The position numbers and the translations under genes are program-made. Under the pieces are notes generated by a model. That model saw only the letters and a program-made list of their open reading frames with translations, did no database searches and had not been told where the DNA came from. From Clostridia bacterium (lineage in GTDB: Bacteria > Bacillota > Clostridia > UMGS1810), in contig JAZSJF010000139.1 in the NCBI GenBank assembly GCA_045534195.1, positions 1-25,396 of the forward strand: 25,396 nucleotides of DNA. Direction: 5' to 3'. Shown here piece after piece: positions 109 through 7,019 of the stretch. Position 1 is the stretch's first letter. Each line of letters begins with the position of its first letter.

Positions 109-300
109 GAAATGTAAAAATTCCCCATAGTGCAAACCGTCAAAGGTGTATAATAAGGATATATTTCCGATTGTTGAAATGTCAATTTTTTAAGGTTGAA
201 AAGCACTTGATTGTGCTTTTCTTTTTTTGTGTGACGGTTTACTTTGAACAAACTTACACTCTCGGCGTATCATATACGCCTTCGGTTCAGTTTGTCCAAT
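108..300. repeat. Dispersed structured intergenic element, copy 1 (short form)
   Basis: Shares ordered blocks with 15433-15726: GGAAATGTAAAAA..CCATA; GTGTATAATAA; TAAGGTTGAAAA-hairpin-T-tract-GTG; CTCTCGGCGTATCATATACGCCTTCGG; TCGGTTCAGTTTGTCCAAT. Confidence 0.8.
198..228 (+). terminator. Intrinsic terminator-like hairpin inside repeat copy 1
   Basis: GAAAAGCAC-TTGATT-GTGCTTTTC (9 bp perfect stem) followed by a T run; lies downstream of the YitT stop. Confidence 0.7.
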
Positions 301-439
301 ATGAGAAATTTTTTTAATTTCCTGATTCAGTATCACATACTGCTTCGGATTCTGTTATAAATTAATCTATTGTATTTTGTTTTTAAATGTGTTATTATAT
401 AATAGATGTATTATATTTAAGGGGAAGGATGTGTGACAA

Positions 440-1696
440 ATGAAAAAAACGGACAAAATCATTGCGCTGATTGTATCTGTTATGATACTTATGTGTATTA
501 TATCTCTGCCTGCAACGGCATCTGCTCCCGACATTCATTCGGAGTCATATATTCTTTCGGACATAAACAGTGATGAGATTCTTTATCAGAAAGGTACATA
601 CAAAGAGGTTTTGCCTTCGGTATCTTCTAAGTTTATGGCAATATATACAGCCATTAATTCCCAATCGGAAGAAAATGTGATTGTTAAGAAAGAATGGCTG
701 GATGAACTTACCAATGATAAACCCAGAATGGGGATTTCGGCGGGAGAAACTTATGCAAAAAAAGATCTTATAAGAGCGTTGTATCTTACGGATTTTTATG
801 ATGTGTATCTGTGTATTGCAAATCACATAGGTGAATCCGGTAAGGGATTTATCGGTATGATGAATGACAATGCAGCGAAACTATCAATGGTAAGCACACA
901 TTATGAAACTCTTTCGGGATACGAACAGGGCAAGGAGTATACCACTCCATATGATGTGCATCTTCTTATGAAATCACTGACAAAAGACAAAGCCTTTGGT
1001 GAGATTACAAAAGATGCATCATATATTGTGAAACCGCTCAAAGGCAAAAGAGAGCCACTGGAAATAAAGCAGATGCTTAATATCAACGATCCGCAGAGCC
1101 AGTGGTATATATCGGGAAGCAAGGTTGCCCGAAGCGATTATAATAAGAACTACGGATACAGTATAGTATTTTCGGTGTTGAGGGATAACAGAGAGATTCT
1201 GTGGATTTCTTTCGGCAACGAAAACGGCGATATGTGTGCAACAGAAGCGGCGGAAGCGGCGGAATTTGCTTTTTCTGATTACAAAAGGGTTATATACACC
1301 AAAGAAGAAATAAAGAAACTCTATAAGGGAGAAAAAAATCTTTATATAGAACCTGCATCTGATATTTATGTGACAGTTCCTTCAGGGGTGGAAAAGGCGA
1401 ATCTTATCGCAACAGTGAAAGAAGATAACCGTATCGCCACATTCAAAGCAGTGGGAAACGGTGTTGATTTTGAGGTGGAGATATCCCGTGTGAAGGCGTC
1501 GGGAATAAGATTTTTGTGGGAAGGATTTCTTACGGTAATCCGCTGGATTCTTGCAGGAATAATCTTTATTATAGTTGCAATTTGTATTTTGTATATTCCG
1601 TTGTCTTTTGTGTCAGAAAAGAAGGCAAAAAAATTAAGAGAGAAAAAAGAGGAAAAAGTCCGCAGACTAAAAGAAAAAATGAAGGAAAATGAATAA
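440..1696 (+). CDS. Peptidase S11 (DacB-like D-Ala-D-Ala carboxypeptidase) fold protein, predicted catalytically inactive, signal peptide plus C-terminal membrane anchor
   Basis: Colinear with S11 enzymes (SESYILSDINSDEILYQK; G.S.GE.Y..KDLI.AL; F...MN..A..L; YTTPYDV) but SxxK reads VSSK, SxN reads DFY, KTG reads KVA. Hydrophobic C-terminal helix and basic tail. SD GGGGAAGGA. Confidence 0.8.
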   Translation: MKKTDKIIALIVSVMILMCIISLPATASAPDIHSESYILSDINSDEILYQKGTYKEVLPSVSSKFMAIYTAINSQSEENVIVKKEWLDELTNDKPRMGISAGETYAKKDLIRALYLTDFYDVYLCIANHIGESGKGFIGMMNDNAAKLSMVSTHYETLSGYEQGKEYTTPYDVHLLMKSLTKDKAFGEITKDASYIVKPLKGKREPLEIKQMLNINDPQSQWYISGSKVARSDYNKNYGYSIVFSVLRDNREILWISFGNENGDMCATEAAEAAEFAFSDYKRVIYTKEEIKKLYKGEKNLYIEPASDIYVTVPSGVEKANLIATVKEDNRIATFKAVGNGVDFEVEISRVKASGIRFLWEGFLTVIRWILAGIIFIIVAICILYIPLSFVSEKKAKKLREKKEEKVRRLKEKMKENE

Positions 1697-1714
1697 AGAT
1701 AAGGAGAAAAAGTT

Positions 1715-2404
1715 ATGGAAAATTTGATTCTGGTAGTAGATGATGAAAAACCTATCGTGGATATACTCAAACTCAACCTTACCAAAAGCGGATATAAGGT
1801 TGTAGAGGCTTATGACGGAGAAGAAGCAGTAGAAAAGGCAAAATCCTGCGATCCTGATCTTATTTTGCTGGATGTTATGCTTCCTAAGATGGACGGATTC
1901 GGCGTGTGCAAAAAAATCCGCGAAACATCTTCCACTCCCATAATTATGCTCACTGCAAGGGAAGATGAAGTGGACAAGGTACTGGGACTTGAACTTGGTG
2001 CCGATGACTATATGACAAAGCCTTTCAGTCTGAGAGAACTTCTGGCAAGAGTCAAGGCAAATTTAAGAAGAACAGTTATAGCCGTTACAGACAACAGTCA
2101 GTCGGATATAATGGAATTCGGTGCGATTAAGATTATCCCCGAAAAGTACGAAGTTACAAAAAACGGAACAGTAATAGAACTTACATTCAGAGAGTTTGAA
2201 CTTCTCAAATTCCTTGCTATGCAGAAGGGTAAGATTTTTTCCAGAGAATCCCTTCTCAACAAAGTATGGGATTATGAATTCTACGGTGATGTAAGAACAG
2301 TAGATGTTACCGTAAGAAGACTTAGAGAAAAGATAGAAGACAACCCGAGCGAACCACAGTACATAATGACAAAAAGAGGTGTGGGATACTACTTCCACGA
2401 CTAA
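1715..2404 (+). CDS. walR: OmpR-family response regulator WalR (YycF)
   Basis: Receiver VVDDE...LLDVMLP...MLTA...KPF; DNA-binding segment GDVRTVDVTVRRLREKIEDNPSEPQYIMTKRGVGYYF closely matches WalR; followed by walK, yycH-like and yycI-like genes. SD AAGGAG. Confidence 0.88.
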   Translation: MENLILVVDDEKPIVDILKLNLTKSGYKVVEAYDGEEAVEKAKSCDPDLILLDVMLPKMDGFGVCKKIRETSSTPIIMLTAREDEVDKVLGLELGADDYMTKPFSLRELLARVKANLRRTVIAVTDNSQSDIMEFGAIKIIPEKYEVTKNGTVIELTFREFELLKFLAMQKGKIFSRESLLNKVWDYEFYGDVRTVDVTVRRLREKIEDNPSEPQYIMTKRGVGYYFHD

Positions 2405-2415: not shown

Positions 2416-2437
2416 TTATATATTGGAGGACATTCAG

Positions 2438-4225
2438 GTGGTTCAGGACAAAAAGTTTTTTAAATCCAGTGTCCGCTATAAGATTATGGCGATGTTTGTG
2501 CTTCTTACAATATCCGTAATCATTATTATCGGGACATTTATGATAAACAGAATAGACAGGTTTTATAATGACGAGTTTGAAACTCTTATGACCAATGTGT
2601 TCAGTGAGGATTTTCAGAGAGAACTTGATATGAAACTTTCGGGAGAAGATCCCCTCTCAAGTATTGATTCCAGTATTACTGCATATCTGGGACAACTTGG
2701 TATAGATTCTTTCAGAAATTACTATATTCTCGATGCATATAACGGAAAGGCACTTTTGTCATCAAACAGTGCTCTTGCAAAGACTCTCATTGCCACACCC
2801 AATATTATTGCGGCTATGAACGGCAAGGTGGGAGATATGTCGGGATATACCTCCAAATATATGGACTACAGTGTGCCTGTAAAAGACGGAGCCGATGCGA
2901 AATATATCATATACATAAAGGATTCCAAGGAAGAAGTTGATGATATGGTCAACAACATTCTTTCCATTATCTTTATGGCGCTGGGACTTGGAATCATTAT
3001 TTCCATCGCATTCGGATTTCTTCTTTCCAAAACCATTATATCACCTATATCATCCCTTACACAGAAGGCACAAAAAATCACTTCAGGTGATTTCGGCGAC
3101 ACAATCGAAGTGAATTCTTCTGATGAAATCGGTCTTCTTACAAAGACATTCAACGATATGGCGGTGGAACTTAACCAGACTCTCGGCGAAATCAAAGGAG
3201 AGCGTGACAAGGTAGAAACGATTCTCAGACATATGGCAGACGGGATTATGGCGTTTGACAACCACGGCAGAATTATCCATATAAACCCTGCTGCAAGGGA
3301 GATTCTCGGAATCGAAAAGATTGAAAAACTGCATTTTAACGAAATATTCAAAATCACCGATCTTACTGTTACAAGAGTAATGTTTTCCGGTGAGTACAAC
3401 GCTATAGAAAAGCAGATGGAAGTGGGCGAAAAGGAAATCAAACTTCTTTTTGCCAAGTTTAAGACAGATGACACACCGGGCGGTGTGGTGGTGGTTATCC
3501 AGGATATCACTCAGCAACAAAAACTGGAAAATTCCCGTAGAGAATTTGTTGCCAATGTTTCCCACGAGTTAAGAACTCCCCTCACTACAGTGAAAGGGTA
3601 TGTGGAAACAATGATGGATTCTGTTGAAGAGAACGATATTGACAGGGATATGTTCCATACATTCCTCAGTACCGTAAACAAAGAAACCGACAGAATGACA
3701 AGACTTGTAAAGGATCTTCTTACCCTTTCAAAACTGGACTACGGTCATAGAGAACTGAAAAAAGAAGATGTTGATGTATCAAATCTTGTAATGAGTATCG
3801 TTGATAGAATGAAAATCAACGCTTCCTCAAAGGATATCGAACTTGTTTATGAGCCTACAAATCAACTTCCTGTTATTTCGGGAGATAAAGACAGACTTGA
3901 ACAGGTGATAGTAAATATCATATCCAACGCCATCAAATATACTCCCGGCGGAGAAGGAAGGGTATTTGTTTCCACCGGAAGAATGTATCAGAATGTGTAT
4001 ATCAAGATAAGGGATAACGGTATGGGCATACCAAAAGACGATCTTCCTCATGTGTTTGAGAGATTTTACAGAGTGGATAAAGCAAGAAGCCGTGAACAGG
4101 GCGGTACAGGTCTTGGCCTTGCAATATCCAATGAAATCATCAAGGAACACGGCGGAAAAATCACTATTTCCAGTGATTACGGTGTGGGAACAGAGGTTAT
4201 TGTTATGCTTCCTGTGGATGAATAA
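2438..4225 (+). CDS. walK: Sensor histidine kinase WalK (YycG): 2 TM, extracellular domain, HAMP, PAS, HisKA, HATPase
   Basis: RREFVANVSHELRTPLT H-box, NIISNAIKYT N-box, DNGMGIP, FERFYRVDKARSREQGGTGLGLAI. Start moved from track TTG 2423 to in-frame GTG 2438, which lies 8 nt after GGAGG (2425-2429). Confidence 0.88.
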   Translation: MVQDKKFFKSSVRYKIMAMFVLLTISVIIIIGTFMINRIDRFYNDEFETLMTNVFSEDFQRELDMKLSGEDPLSSIDSSITAYLGQLGIDSFRNYYILDAYNGKALLSSNSALAKTLIATPNIIAAMNGKVGDMSGYTSKYMDYSVPVKDGADAKYIIYIKDSKEEVDDMVNNILSIIFMALGLGIIISIAFGFLLSKTIISPISSLTQKAQKITSGDFGDTIEVNSSDEIGLLTKTFNDMAVELNQTLGEIKGERDKVETILRHMADGIMAFDNHGRIIHINPAAREILGIEKIEKLHFNEIFKITDLTVTRVMFSGEYNAIEKQMEVGEKEIKLLFAKFKTDDTPGGVVVVIQDITQQQKLENSRREFVANVSHELRTPLTTVKGYVETMMDSVEENDIDRDMFHTFLSTVNKETDRMTRLVKDLLTLSKLDYGHRELKKEDVDVSNLVMSIVDRMKINASSKDIELVYEPTNQLPVISGDKDRLEQVIVNIISNAIKYTPGGEGRVFVSTGRMYQNVYIKIRDNGMGIPKDDLPHVFERFYRVDKARSREQGGTGLGLAISNEIIKEHGGKITISSDYGVGTEVIVMLPVDE

Positions 4226-4227
4226 AA

Positions 4228-4282
4228 TGTCAAGTTAATGTAATGACGCTGTAATATATCTGTAACAAAAGGATAGTATAAT
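4228..4282 (+). promoter_or_regulatory. Tandem WalR-type boxes plus -10 element upstream of the 4339 gene
   Basis: TGTCAA-N5-TGTAAT-N5-TGTAAT-N5-TGTAAC (4228-4266, exact 11 bp period); last three fit the B. subtilis WalR half-site TGTWAH; TATAAT at 4277-4282; the boxes cover the -35 position, which has no consensus. Confidence 0.75.
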
Positions 4283-4338
4283 AGTAAATGTAGAAATGAC
4301 GAAAGTTGGAATACTCTTTTTTGCGGAGGTAATATATT

Positions 4339-4794
4339 ATGAAAAAATTTGTTATAGCAATCCTTTGTATGATGATTGTTATCATTCCGTTTGGTGCAAT
4401 GGCTGCACCGGAATTTGTAGGTACCGGTTATGAAGGAAACACCAATGCGCTCTTTACAGTGCTCAATCCTGATTCTTTCAGTACAACCACATCAAGTTCT
4501 ACCTGTATCGTATCTGCTGCAGGTACAAAGAACTCTACAATGGCTGTATATCTCTATGATGCTTCTACAGGTATGTACAGAAAGATCAATACATTTATCA
4601 ACGATGTGAAACAGAATGAAAAGGTTGTTGGAGTAAGCGGTCTTTATGCAGAACAGGTACTCCTCAGAAATGGCCTTAACAAAATTCTTGTATATGCTCA
4701 ACTTGGTTCTGATATTCAGACACAAAGACTTGAAGTTACTCTTGTTTCCGACAAGTTCGGCGGCAATCTCAAGGCTTATGTAATGGGCAAATAA
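4339..4794 (+). CDS. Secreted hypothetical protein, single beta-rich domain
   Basis: SD GCGGAGGT; signal peptide MKKFVIAILCMMIVIIPFGAMA-A; L..G.N.I.VYA pattern typical of Ig-like beta-sandwiches. Confidence 0.8.
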   Translation: MKKFVIAILCMMIVIIPFGAMAAPEFVGTGYEGNTNALFTVLNPDSFSTTTSSSTCIVSAAGTKNSTMAVYLYDASTGMYRKINTFINDVKQNEKVVGVSGLYAEQVLLRNGLNKILVYAQLGSDIQTQRLEVTLVSDKFGGNLKAYVMGK

Positions 4795-4824: not shown

Positions 4825-6261
4825 ATGAGAAAAATACACTTAAAAAACGCTGTACTGGTAGTTCTTATACTGTGCAGCGTTATTTTAGCCTTTAATACCT
4901 GGACGGATGAAAAATTATGGTCCGATGACTATAATTTTTTTTCTGTTATTAAACAGAAACTGGGACTTTCGGATAAATACGGTGCTTTTGGTTCATTGTC
5001 AAAAGAGCGTCTTGCCATGCCCCACAGAATAGTGGTGAATAATTCTGCCAAACGAAGTGTGTATTATCAGAATGAGGAAGGATTTGAAGAACTTTTTCAT
5101 AGTGTGAGAACAGTTTTTGAAAAGGCACTCCAGACTGAGAAATACCAGACTGTATCTGAATCCAAGTGGTACTCTGCTATCAAAAACAAATCTGTGTTTG
5201 TCACATATCCGGCAGTGTATGATATATCCATTATAGGGGATATATTCAGAATAAAAGATCCGGAAATCTCCGTAGGCAGTATGAAACAGTTTGTCATCAC
5301 TTCCGAGTCGGACTATGACGATACACTCAGTGTGTATATCAGAGATGAGAAGGATGGCAGTTTCAAATTGTGTTATGTGGATTATGAAATTGCCAAATTT
5401 CTTGATGTGGTTGAGGGCAGTGCGAAGGATTCCGCAGGTGCTCTTCCATATTCCTTTGAATTGAATTTTGACAAAGGCGGCGACAAAAAGCAGAACACTC
5501 TTATCGGATCGGAAGTTCTTTTGAACATTGTTCCCACAAAGCACAAAGGAATCGCACCTTCAAACCATATTGTGGCATCAGACGGAAGGTTCAGATCTGA
5601 TGTTGTGGAAAAAATCCTTAAATGCTTTGACTACAACACTTCATCCCCGAGAAAGTATCCGGACAAGGATGATGTTGTTTATGTAGAAAATTATTCCACC
5701 ATCAGATTTTATAAATCAGGTGTTGTAGAATATAAGGCAATTGCAAATGATAAGGGGATTTCCCTTGATGTTTCCAACAAAGACAATATCAGAGAGGTAT
5801 ATTCTGCATCTCTCGGTTTTGTGTCAAAACTGTGGCAGACCGCAGTGCCTGACCGTGAACTGAATCTTATGGTGTCTTCCGATGTGGTGGGACTTAATAA
5901 AAATTCCACTTTCAAAATCACTATGAATTATTACAACGACGGATATATAATAAGAGATGATATAAATATGGACATAAACAACAGTGTTATGACCAATGCG
6001 GTAGAAATGGTGATTACTTCCGGCAAGATTGTTTCATACCGTCAGGTGATGAAGTTGTATGATGAAACAAATGAAACTCTTATGAATATGTCCACAATAG
6101 ATGCCATAGACGAGTTGTATCAGAATGAGGAGTTTTCTCTGGGCAAGGCAGTTGTAAGCATTACTCCTGCATATACCTTTGACGAAAACGGCAACTGCAT
6201 TATGACTTATATTGCACTGGATGACAAAAAACAGGAATTCCTTTTGAAACAGCGGGGATAA
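4825..6261 (+). CDS. yycH: YycH (WalH)-like membrane-anchored WalK regulator
   Basis: N-terminal TM (K.AVLVVLILCSVILAFNTW), large extracellular region, position between walK and yycI-like gene; sequence identity itself is weak. Confidence 0.6.
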   Translation: MRKIHLKNAVLVVLILCSVILAFNTWTDEKLWSDDYNFFSVIKQKLGLSDKYGAFGSLSKERLAMPHRIVVNNSAKRSVYYQNEEGFEELFHSVRTVFEKALQTEKYQTVSESKWYSAIKNKSVFVTYPAVYDISIIGDIFRIKDPEISVGSMKQFVITSESDYDDTLSVYIRDEKDGSFKLCYVDYEIAKFLDVVEGSAKDSAGALPYSFELNFDKGGDKKQNTLIGSEVLLNIVPTKHKGIAPSNHIVASDGRFRSDVVEKILKCFDYNTSSPRKYPDKDDVVYVENYSTIRFYKSGVVEYKAIANDKGISLDVSNKDNIREVYSASLGFVSKLWQTAVPDRELNLMVSSDVVGLNKNSTFKITMNYYNDGYIIRDDINMDINNSVMTNAVEMVITSGKIVSYRQVMKLYDETNETLMNMSTIDAIDELYQNEEFSLGKAVVSITPAYTFDENGNCIMTYIALDDKKQEFLLKQRG

Positions 6262-6275
6262 GGAGGTAAGATTTT

Positions 6276-7019
6276 ATGAACTGGAATAAGTTAAAGACAT
6301 TTCTTATTGTGCTTTTTTCAGCATTGAATATTATCCTTATTATCACTATGCTTACAAAGGATTACAAAGAAACGGTTGTGCCTCAGACCACTATACAGGA
6401 CACTGTGGAAATCCTTAATAAGAGAGGGATAAGCATAGATAAATCCATTATTCCCGACAGGGCAAAAAATATGGAAGGATTCCCTATGCAGACTATAGAT
6501 TTTGACAGGATTCCATACAGAATAAGCCATCCCGGCGGCGGAGTTTTTGAATTCAGTGTGCCCATAGAGGTTGATACGGTCAAGGAGGTAAAGAAACTTA
6601 CCGAAAAACTGGGTATCGGATATGCGGAATTTACATCAGATGCATCTGATATAAAGAATATCAGAGCAGTTCAGGTAATAGATGATTATACAATATTCGG
6701 AAATTATCTGGATATAGAAGTGCTTGACAAAATAGTAAAGGTCAAAGGCGAATGGCTCAATCCATCAAATCATACACTTGAAAATGAGGATGAAGTCGAG
6801 CCTTCCCAGGTCACAAGCATACTTATGGAATTTATATCCAACCCTGACAGACCTCAGGGAAATATTACTATAAAAAATATACAATTCGGATATTTTGCAC
6901 CTGAATATACTCTTTCGGAAGAAATACAGACAATGACTGTTGTACCTTGTTGGGAAATAGCACTTGACACGGGAGAGAATTTCTATTATGATGCAAGAAA
7001 CGGAGAATATCTCAAATAA
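6276..7019 (+). CDS. yycI: YycI (WalI)-like WalK regulator
   Basis: N-terminus MNWNKLKTFLIVLFSALNIILII fits the YycI MDW.K.K.IFI..FL.LNI pattern; C-terminal VPCWEI...F.YDA; SD AAGGAGG. Confidence 0.7.
   Translation: MNWNKLKTFLIVLFSALNIILIITMLTKDYKETVVPQTTIQDTVEILNKRGISIDKSIIPDRAKNMEGFPMQTIDFDRIPYRISHPGGGVFEFSVPIEVDTVKEVKKLTEKLGIGYAEFTSDASDIKNIRAVQVIDDYTIFGNYLDIEVLDKIVKVKGEWLNPSNHTLENEDEVEPSQVTSILMEFISNPDRPQGNITIKNIQFGYFAPEYTLSEEIQTMTVVPCWEIALDTGENFYYDARNGEYLK
6964..6992 (+). promoter_or_regulatory. sigmaA promoter inside the 3' end of yycI, pointing at ybaB
   Basis: TTGACA (6964-6969)-17 bp-TATGAT (6987-6992). Confidence 0.6.

Follow-up and report, generated by a model that had tools for sequence, protein, structure and literature searches.

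INTRODUCTION

In Firmicutes the wall-homeostasis system WalRK is essential; which signals and helpers set the activity of its kinase WalK varies by lineage and is only partly known. Two such helpers, YycH and YycI, act on WalK through their transmembrane helices. Here we analysed a stretch of 25,396 nucleotides (nt) from a Clostridia bacterium (GenBank assembly GCA_045534195.1, contig JAZSJF010000139.1, positions 1 to 25,396 of the forward strand; referred to as the window), in which the gene at 440–1696 encodes a homologue of D,D-carboxypeptidases immediately in front of walR. An earlier note, made from the sequence alone, had described this gene as a catalytically dead carboxypeptidase homologue heading the walRK cluster and as a candidate muropeptide or beta-lactam sensor. 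We find that the encoded protein belongs to the S11 family, i.e. the type-5 low-molecular-weight penicillin-binding proteins (PBPs), that it has lost all three catalytic motifs while the gene stayed intact under purifying selection, and that the gene is tightly joined to walR throughout its genus wherever the downstream DNA is known.

Several described systems share one or the other of these traits. In Neisseria, the gene for DacC, a homologue of type-5 low-molecular-weight PBPs, is kept although its product has lost SxxK, SxN and KTG alike, and a non-enzymatic scaffold role has been proposed for this protein (PMC6365954). The window protein resembles DacC in being a type-5 PBP homologue retained after the loss of the three motifs; DacC, however, is the periplasmic protein of a Gram-negative bacterium, has a link to the assembly of pili and has no two-component system encoded with it, whereas the window protein is from a Firmicute, has a true transmembrane anchor and a conserved cytoplasmic tail, is encoded by the first cistron of walRK and lost its motifs independently. 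A literature search for carboxypeptidases described as lacking the catalytic serine returned none under such wording. In Clostridioides difficile, the wal operon begins with the gene for the lipoprotein WalA, which is transcribed together with walRK, and a modulation of WalK by WalA has been proposed, not shown (PMC9210968). Like the window protein, WalA is exported, lineage-specific and encoded immediately upstream of walR; it differs in being a lipoprotein with a predicted beta-propeller lyase domain, the fold of which is unrelated to that of the window protein (PMC9210968). Moreover, C. difficile lacks yycH and yycI, whereas the window operon has both. Like the window protein, WalH (YycH) and WalI (YycI) of Bacillus subtilis are encoded in the wal cluster, cross the membrane once and have an extracytoplasmic domain, but there is no homology between them and the window protein, and they are anchored at the N-terminus, the window protein at the C-terminus of an S11 fold.

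A penicillin-binding fold used for sensing and not for wall synthesis is also found in BlaR1/MecR1 and in Bacillus thuringiensis PbpP (PMC8092216). In BlaR1, signalling is set off when a beta-lactam covalently acylates the transpeptidase-like domain (PMC8092216), whereas the window protein has neither the acylation serine nor a cytoplasmic output domain. Finally, the active type-5 PBPs, e.g. B. subtilis DacB (3mfd), Escherichia coli PBP5 and PBP6 (1nzo, 3it9) and Pseudomonas aeruginosa PBP5 (4k91), have the same two-domain architecture (Foldseek E-values of 1e-19 to 1e-22, template-modelling scores of 0.75–0.86 by target length) and likewise a signal peptide and a C-terminal membrane attachment; they differ from the window protein in that all of them carry SxxK, SxN and KTG, with an identity to it of 17–22%.

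RESULTS AND DISCUSSION

A PBP5 fold without its catalytic motifs

The sole long reading frame at 440–1696 encodes 418 amino acids (aa) on the forward strand and starts with an ATG 10 nt past a Shine-Dalgarno site, GGGGAAGGA. Pfam PF00768 (Peptidase_S11) matches residues 26–252 of the protein with 74.6 bits (cut-off 27.6), and the AlphaFold2 (AF2) model, with a predicted local distance difference test score (pLDDT) of 90, shows the two-domain PBP5 fold, consisting of a penicillin-binding domain and a C-terminal beta-sandwich; with this family score and this fold, the protein is confirmed by homology as an S11/type-5 low-molecular-weight PBP. The best Foldseek matches of the model are DacB, PBP5 and PBP6, which align over both domains with 330–370 columns; the NCBIfam models for DacA, DacC and DacD match the protein only far under their cut-offs. 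In the model, a hydrophobic helix is found at the N-terminus (residues 3–20) and a single long helix at the C-terminus (residues 355–417), the latter with a hydrophobic stretch of 23 residues. The signal peptide is probably cleaved, and from the model the protein is predicted to be membrane-anchored, with an extracytoplasmic domain and a short cytoplasmic tail. The genome also encodes two S11 paralogues with intact motifs.

We checked the register of the catalytic motifs in three ways, by HMMER against solved PBPs, by MAFFT together with the two intact S11 paralogues and 20 relatives, and by hhalign, in which a profile of the genus clade was compared with one of 16 intact enzymes (probability 100, 403 columns). 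All three alignments place Val61 (codon 620–622) at the position of the nucleophile serine and Lys64 at that of the SxxK lysine, P-S-V61-S-S-K64 being aligned on P-A-S-x-T-K, and helix 61–72 of the AF2 model starts exactly at Val61, the serine position of PBPs. Lys64 is replaced by Arg in three of the seven congeners. All three alignments likewise show SxN replaced by Asp118-Phe119-Tyr120. KTG is gone in every register: the ungapped hhalign and MAFFT alignments place it at Arg231-Ser232-Asp233 (K/R-x-D/E genus-wide), whereas Lys228-Val-Ala, three residues upstream, is seen as its equivalent only in gapped pairwise HMMER alignments. The ungapped spacing to Gly239-Tyr240, which matches that of PBP5, likewise speaks for 231–233. 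The earlier note had read the three positions as Val61, DFY and KVA; the first two are borne out, and so is the loss of KTG, but its placement at KVA is not. A nucleophile at Ser60 or Ser62, named in that note as the outcome that would speak against it, is given by none of the alignments.

All six further lineages of the genus have V at the serine position, D-x-Y and K/R-x-D/E, and Ser60 and Ser62, on either side of Val61, are invariant throughout the genus. Residues that intact S11 enzymes conserve for structural reasons are still present (Pro59, Asp121, Phe137, Met141, Asn142, Gly160 and Asp172), and only the catalytic positions are replaced. Thus none of the three motifs of an active D,D-carboxypeptidase, SxxK, SxN and KTG, is present, and the protein is best explained, judging by its sequence, as a former PBP5-type D,D-carboxypeptidase that would no longer be an acyl-enzyme.

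Purifying selection on the pseudoenzyme

Among 1.8 billion representative proteins only six match the window protein under 1e-30. Its close relatives are found in six further lineages (68–72% identity), all of them metagenome-assembled genomes labelled Oscillospiraceae or Clostridia, and most of the DNA and RNA runs with the locus come from bovine or other gut/faecal metagenomes, one being labelled terrestrial. Reading frames of 418–436 aa are whole in all seven lineages, in agreement with the intact frame described before. The pairwise ratio of nonsynonymous to synonymous substitution rates (dN/dS, NG86) of the pseudoenzyme gene is 0.07–0.14 (six lineages; dS 0.9–2.8), with an omega of 0.09 for the least saturated pair (dS 0.91). 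For comparison, we obtained 0.05–0.12 for yycH, 0.13–0.19 for yycI and 0.03–0.07 for walK. Across the segments of the mature protein 46%–61% of the codons are invariant, and synonymous change is plentiful. Conservation is strongest at the very end of the cytoplasmic tail (Table 1), where two thirds of the invariant codons of the last 15 residues vary synonymously, so the constraint acts on the protein; the transmembrane helix is likewise conserved at the protein level. These data support the view that the gene is intact and under purifying selection and not decaying. With dN/dS values like those of yycH, a kept fold and the three motifs lost, the protein has the properties of an S11 pseudoenzyme, as had been suggested.

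Linkage to walR

The TAA stop codon of the pseudoenzyme gene lies at 1694–1696 and the ATG of walR at 1715. We found no terminator-like site within 1697–1714, and no separate walR promoter could fit in these 18 nt. Wherever the DNA that follows is known in a congener, 17–18 nt separate the pseudoenzyme gene from its neighbour; four lineages have a complete walR in this place, a fifth has a walR start of 29 residues, and in a sixth the neighbour is a called gene. In three bovine gut metatranscriptome libraries, contigs cover the pseudoenzyme gene at a word depth of about that of walR and walK, and two of them (1589–1970 and 1667–2372) span the junction; the uneven depth indicates that the libraries reflect RNA. 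The 18 nt junction, its conservation in the genus and the bridging contigs place the gene in the wal operon, a single transcript being unproven by the contigs. In one uncultured Oscillospiraceae genus of animal guts, the pseudoenzyme gene would be the promoter-proximal cistron of the walR-walK operon, and the protein would hence be made together with the wall-homeostasis kinase.

In another genus (g8, genome G009) a catalytically intact orthologue is also located upstream of walR, separated from it by a gap of ~300 bp with a strong terminator-like hairpin and promoter-like sites; the tight fusion is therefore a trait of the dead lineage only. The absence of a terminator over the 18 bp in front of walR is as the earlier note had it. 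A co-occurrence of motif loss with walR synteny, which that note proposed to examine, is seen in part: the junction is found in all congeners with known downstream DNA, but a strict co-occurrence is not, as the intact G009 orthologue adjoins walR as well. The opposite outcome, orthologues unlinked to walRK and in neutral decay, is contradicted by the congener junctions and by the dN/dS values.

In the 29 genera searched, S11 genes adjoin walR in at least three separate arrangements. Catalytically intact S11 paralogues are found beside walR at L042:4768-5901 (genome G020, same strand) and at L043:2072-3235 (genome G027, divergent), which suggests that S11 genes of this class have become associated with walRK repeatedly. 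The intact orthologues of two further genera (g2 and g4) adjoin [FeFe]-hydrogenase maturation genes (L013:1387-4091, L015:8968-10245 and L017:7421-8632), among them genes for a TM1266-like regulator, radical-SAM HydE/HydG-like genes and HydF.

Phylogeny and other dead S11 clades

The dead clade, made up of the window protein and its congeners, is nested in a well-supported group with intact, equally long, transmembrane-anchored proteins of g2, g4, g8 and g13, genera of the same family. In a second tree, the dead clade and the proteins of g2, g4 and g8 form one clade with a support of 91. The stem branch of the dead clade measures 1.68 changes per site and its terminal branches 0.05–0.2; the identity of the dead clade to the g2, g4 and g8 orthologues is 21–28%, that of those orthologues among themselves 35–44%. 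The clade thus evolved at an accelerated rate along a long stem and has been conserved since. The nearest outgroup, P0013 (32% identity), has T-K-N and K-S-G, and a walR start lies 71 nt downstream of its gene. This gene (L041:1-1339, on a contig of 1.3 kb) lacks its first ~110 codons, the first 277 bases being an unrelated frame on the minus strand, owing to either a real truncation or a chimeric assembly; neither further relatives of the P0013 lineage nor a full-length member were found.

A second dead clade of the same family carries P-G-G-F-T-K, D-A-G-E/D and K-T-S in place of SxxK, SxN and KTG. It is transmembrane-anchored and occurs in at least six genera (loci L020, L022, L024-L030 and L032; genomes G004, G007, G011-G013, G015, G018, G020, G022 and G024), where its genes are apparently monocistronic and have no conserved neighbours. 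The best tree splits the two dead clades and a single clade is not rejected by the approximately unbiased test (p 0.11); we favour an independent loss of catalysis in the two. More generally, the nucleophile serine is missing in about one fifth of the 164 relatives examined, with varied replacements (e.g. P0052, P0064, P0087, P0107 and P0109).

The wal cluster and its transcription

The features of the locus are compiled in Table 1.

Table 1. Features of the wal locus in the window
Feature	Position	Strand	Remarks
Terminator-like hairpin after yitT-type gene	198..221	+	9 pairs, then T run; separates yitT-type gene from pseudoenzyme unit
Genus-invariant upstream block, candidate sigma-A promoter	366..420	+	~50 invariant columns in six lineages with dS >1
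S11 pseudoenzyme coding sequence	440..1696	+	signal-peptide-like helix aa 1-27; PBP domain aa 28-280; beta-sandwich domain II aa 281-352; transmembrane helix ~aa 367-390; charged cytoplasmic tail aa 391-418
Val61-Ser62-Ser63-Lys64 replacing Ser-x-x-Lys	620..631	+	three alignments; helix 61-72 begins at Val61
Asp118-Phe119-Tyr120 replacing Ser-x-Asn	791..799	+	all three alignments; Asp118 and Tyr120 invariant in genus
Arg231-Ser232-Asp233, most likely Lys-Thr-Gly equivalent	1130..1138	+	hhalign and MAFFT; model strand 227-235
Cytoplasmic tail	1610..1693	+	last 15 residues most conserved segment of the protein (80% invariant)
18-nt junction to walR	1697..1714	+	walR ribosome-binding site AAGGAGA 1701-1707; no terminator
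walR, YycF-type response regulator	1715..2404	+	NF040534 339.8 bits (cut-off 340); best match by 76 bits
walK-type histidine kinase	2423..4225	+	first transmembrane helix, ~137-aa extracytoplasmic domain, second transmembrane helix, HAMP, PAS, HisKA, HATPase
Three overlapping, phased TGTWAH-N5-TGTWAH matches	4228..4266	+	ahead of accessory genes
Small secreted protein, 151 aa	4339..4794	+	kept between walK and yycH across family
yycH homologue, 478 aa	4825..6261	+	AF2 model vs B. subtilis YycH 2fgt: E 1e-14, template-modelling score 0.68
yycI-like gene	6276..7019	+	Pfam YycI 28.9 bits, just under cut-off 29.7

WalK is aligned over its full length by HK_WalK with 472 bits, under the cut-off of 725. 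The Wal proteins of these Clostridia are thus just outside (walR) or well under (walK) the curated equivalog thresholds, despite their full-length alignment and the yycH/yycI context. Pfam and PDB sequence searches with the 478-aa protein gave no match, so that 4825–6261 would be annotated as hypothetical; it is recognisable as YycH by its fold only. As its AF2 model matches YycH, the locus is a true walR-walK-yycH-yycI cluster preceded by one additional gene, in keeping with the earlier description of the pseudoenzyme gene as an addition to the B. subtilis layout; the yycI assignment comes with a Pfam score just short of the cut-off. On the same strand, ybaB follows the yycI-like gene.

Ahead of walR, the sole candidate for a promoter is the invariant block that precedes the pseudoenzyme gene. 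It contains TTGTAT at 370–375, a spacer of 17 nt and an extended -10 element, TGTTATTAT, at 390–398, from which it is a putative sigma-A promoter; in other genera, similar TTGAnT-17-TG-TTATnAT sites are found directly upstream of walR. The YitT identity of the gene that precedes this unit is drawn partly from a congener locus (L039). Searching for WalR boxes (TGTWAH-N5-TGTWAH with at most one mismatch), we found none in 230–440, so that WalR autoregulation at the first promoter is unsupported; the sole cluster of boxes lies behind walK. The depth in the RNA libraries rises ~5-fold from 4117 onward (4117–4400), which, together with the repeats, suggests a second, internal promoter region for the accessory genes near 4228–4266. 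In DNA run X1, one contig joins position 104 to 328, skipping 223 bases. Some strains may therefore lack an element at 108–300, as would be expected of an insertion or a mobile element; the joint is weak, with 29 letters on its shorter side where at least 30 are advised for metagenome joints.

Possible roles of the pseudoenzyme

The loss of all catalytic residues, the selection that keeps the gene and its place as the first gene of the walRK operon make a non-enzymatic helper likely. The pseudoenzyme would be exported and held on the external face of the membrane by one C-terminal transmembrane helix, with a short conserved tail inside, and its mode of action would most likely be binding and not catalysis. 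We favour a role as a membrane-anchored accessory of the WalRK/YycH/YycI module, which would tune or inform wall-homeostasis signalling, although we give this reading somewhat less than an even chance. The presumed partner of such binding would be WalK, YycH or YycI, and a direct modulation of WalK appears doubtful. Still more speculative, and in our judgement improbable, is the idea that the dead PBP5 module constitutes a new class of WalK co-sensor that reads the state of the wall non-covalently, e.g. from uncross-linked stem peptides, and could pass it to WalK (or YycH/YycI) via the transmembrane helix and the conserved tail. With the known WalK accessories the protein shares a membrane-anchored extracytoplasmic domain (predicted from helix 3–20 and the transmembrane segment within helix 355–417); its S11 fold is not that of YycH or YycI, and the true yycH is the gene at 4825–6261. 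A complex prediction with WalK residues 1–210 and pseudoenzyme residues 28–418 gave a score of 0.00, which counts neither for nor against binding.

A number of observations weigh against the accessory role. Contact with or signalling to WalK, or contact with YycH or YycI, is shown by none of our results, and YycH and YycI are already present in the organism. The bridging contigs may include DNA and are no proof of a single transcript. The intact orthologues of g2, g4 and g13 are not beside walR, and as the intact G009 orthologue is, the adjacency to walR is older than the loss of the motifs. For the extracytoplasmic domain of WalK, the genus compares with other genera at 52–59% and these among themselves at 53–57%, and neither co-acceleration nor co-adaptation of this domain with the pseudoenzyme was seen. 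The Asp/Glu at the KTG glycine and the Tyr at the SxN asparagine would argue against canonical stem-peptide binding. Moreover, no two-component systems were seen near other dead Clostridia S11 proteins (P0052, P0064, P0087 and the PGGFTK clade), the three individually checked genes being located next to an ABC/Wzt polysaccharide cluster, an M50 peptidase and a Band_7 gene, so that a loss of catalysis in the S11 family needs no Wal connection. Part of this evidence fits a different role, in which the pseudoenzyme serves as a scaffold or regulator of other peptidoglycan enzymes (e.g. an intact S11 carboxypeptidase or a synthase) and the wal operon provides co-expression only. Dead S11 clades are frequent and unlinked to two-component systems, as in the six or more genera with PGGFTK/DAGE/KTS, ~20% of the top relatives are without the serine, two intact S11 paralogues are kept in the genome, and the sensor domain of WalK shows no co-acceleration. 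However, the fusion into the operon is confined to the dead lineage and does not vary within it, no gene for a partner enzyme is linked, and the strongly conserved cytoplasmic tail has no obvious use in an extracytoplasmic scaffold. We consider the scaffold role, of the kind put forward for Neisseria DacC (PMC6365954), a serious contender, nearly as likely as that of a Wal accessory.

The remaining explanations fare less well. Ser60 and Ser62, invariant in the genus and flanking Val61, could provide a displaced nucleophile, or Asp118 and Asp233 could hydrolyse a new substrate, in which case the protein would still be an enzyme of altered chemistry; the strong selection and the conserved, non-random nature of the replacements (Asp118, Tyr120 and an acidic residue at 233) would be in line with this. 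Known PBP chemistry, though, needs the SxxK lysine, SxN and KTG. In the model the nucleophile-bearing helix starts at Val61, the general base Lys64 is Arg in 3/7 lineages, and SxN and KTG are lost together, with a side chain now at the position of the KTG glycine. Since the lysine is not conserved and SxN and KTG are gone, residual activity via Ser60 or Ser62 is unlikely, and we rate an altered enzyme as distinctly improbable. More remote still is the beta-lactam sensor proposed earlier, which would relay drug binding to WalK in the manner of BlaR1 or PbpP: a PBP fold on the external face of the membrane is indeed encoded with a sensor kinase, and PBP-type sensors exist (PMC8092216), but Val61 stands in place of the acylatable serine on which BlaR1 signalling depends (PMC8092216), the other cleft motifs are replaced as well, and the cytoplasmic part is a tail of 28 residues with neither an output domain nor a dedicated partner. 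With the acylatable serine absent, this candidate is very unlikely. Equally slight is the chance that the gene is a relic drifting to loss and retained only by sitting between the promoter and the essential walRK. The long stem branch and the loss of catalysis could be read this way, and a place ahead of essential genes could shield a frame from polar disruptions. The selection data contradict neutral decay: at a dS of 0.9–2.8 the dN/dS stays at 0.07–0.14, no frame is broken in 7/7 lineages, and about half of the codons in the mature segments (46%–61%) do not vary amid plentiful synonymous change.

Implications for Wal signalling and the S11 family

The host genus is uncultured and known from metagenomes only, and the evidence that ties the protein to WalK is circumstantial. 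Neither dead type-5 PBPs (DacC, PMC6365954) nor wal operons headed by a lineage-specific gene (C. difficile walA, PMC9210968) are new in themselves. The novelty lies in their combination, namely in an S11 pseudoenzyme that was captured as the first walRK cistron in step with its loss of catalysis, beside a full yycH/yycI set. As dead S11 homologues are common in Clostridia, the annotation 'D-alanyl-D-alanine carboxypeptidase' would often be wrong there, and many proteins so annotated may be pseudoenzymes. For the Wal system, the case amounts to a natural experiment that points to a candidate helper: a wall enzyme gave up its chemistry, changed rapidly and was then held constant by selection, its gene being fused ahead of walRK at the same time. 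If the co-sensor idea is true, the pseudoenzyme would be a carboxypeptidase that nature has converted into a receptor serving the essential wall-homeostasis kinase.

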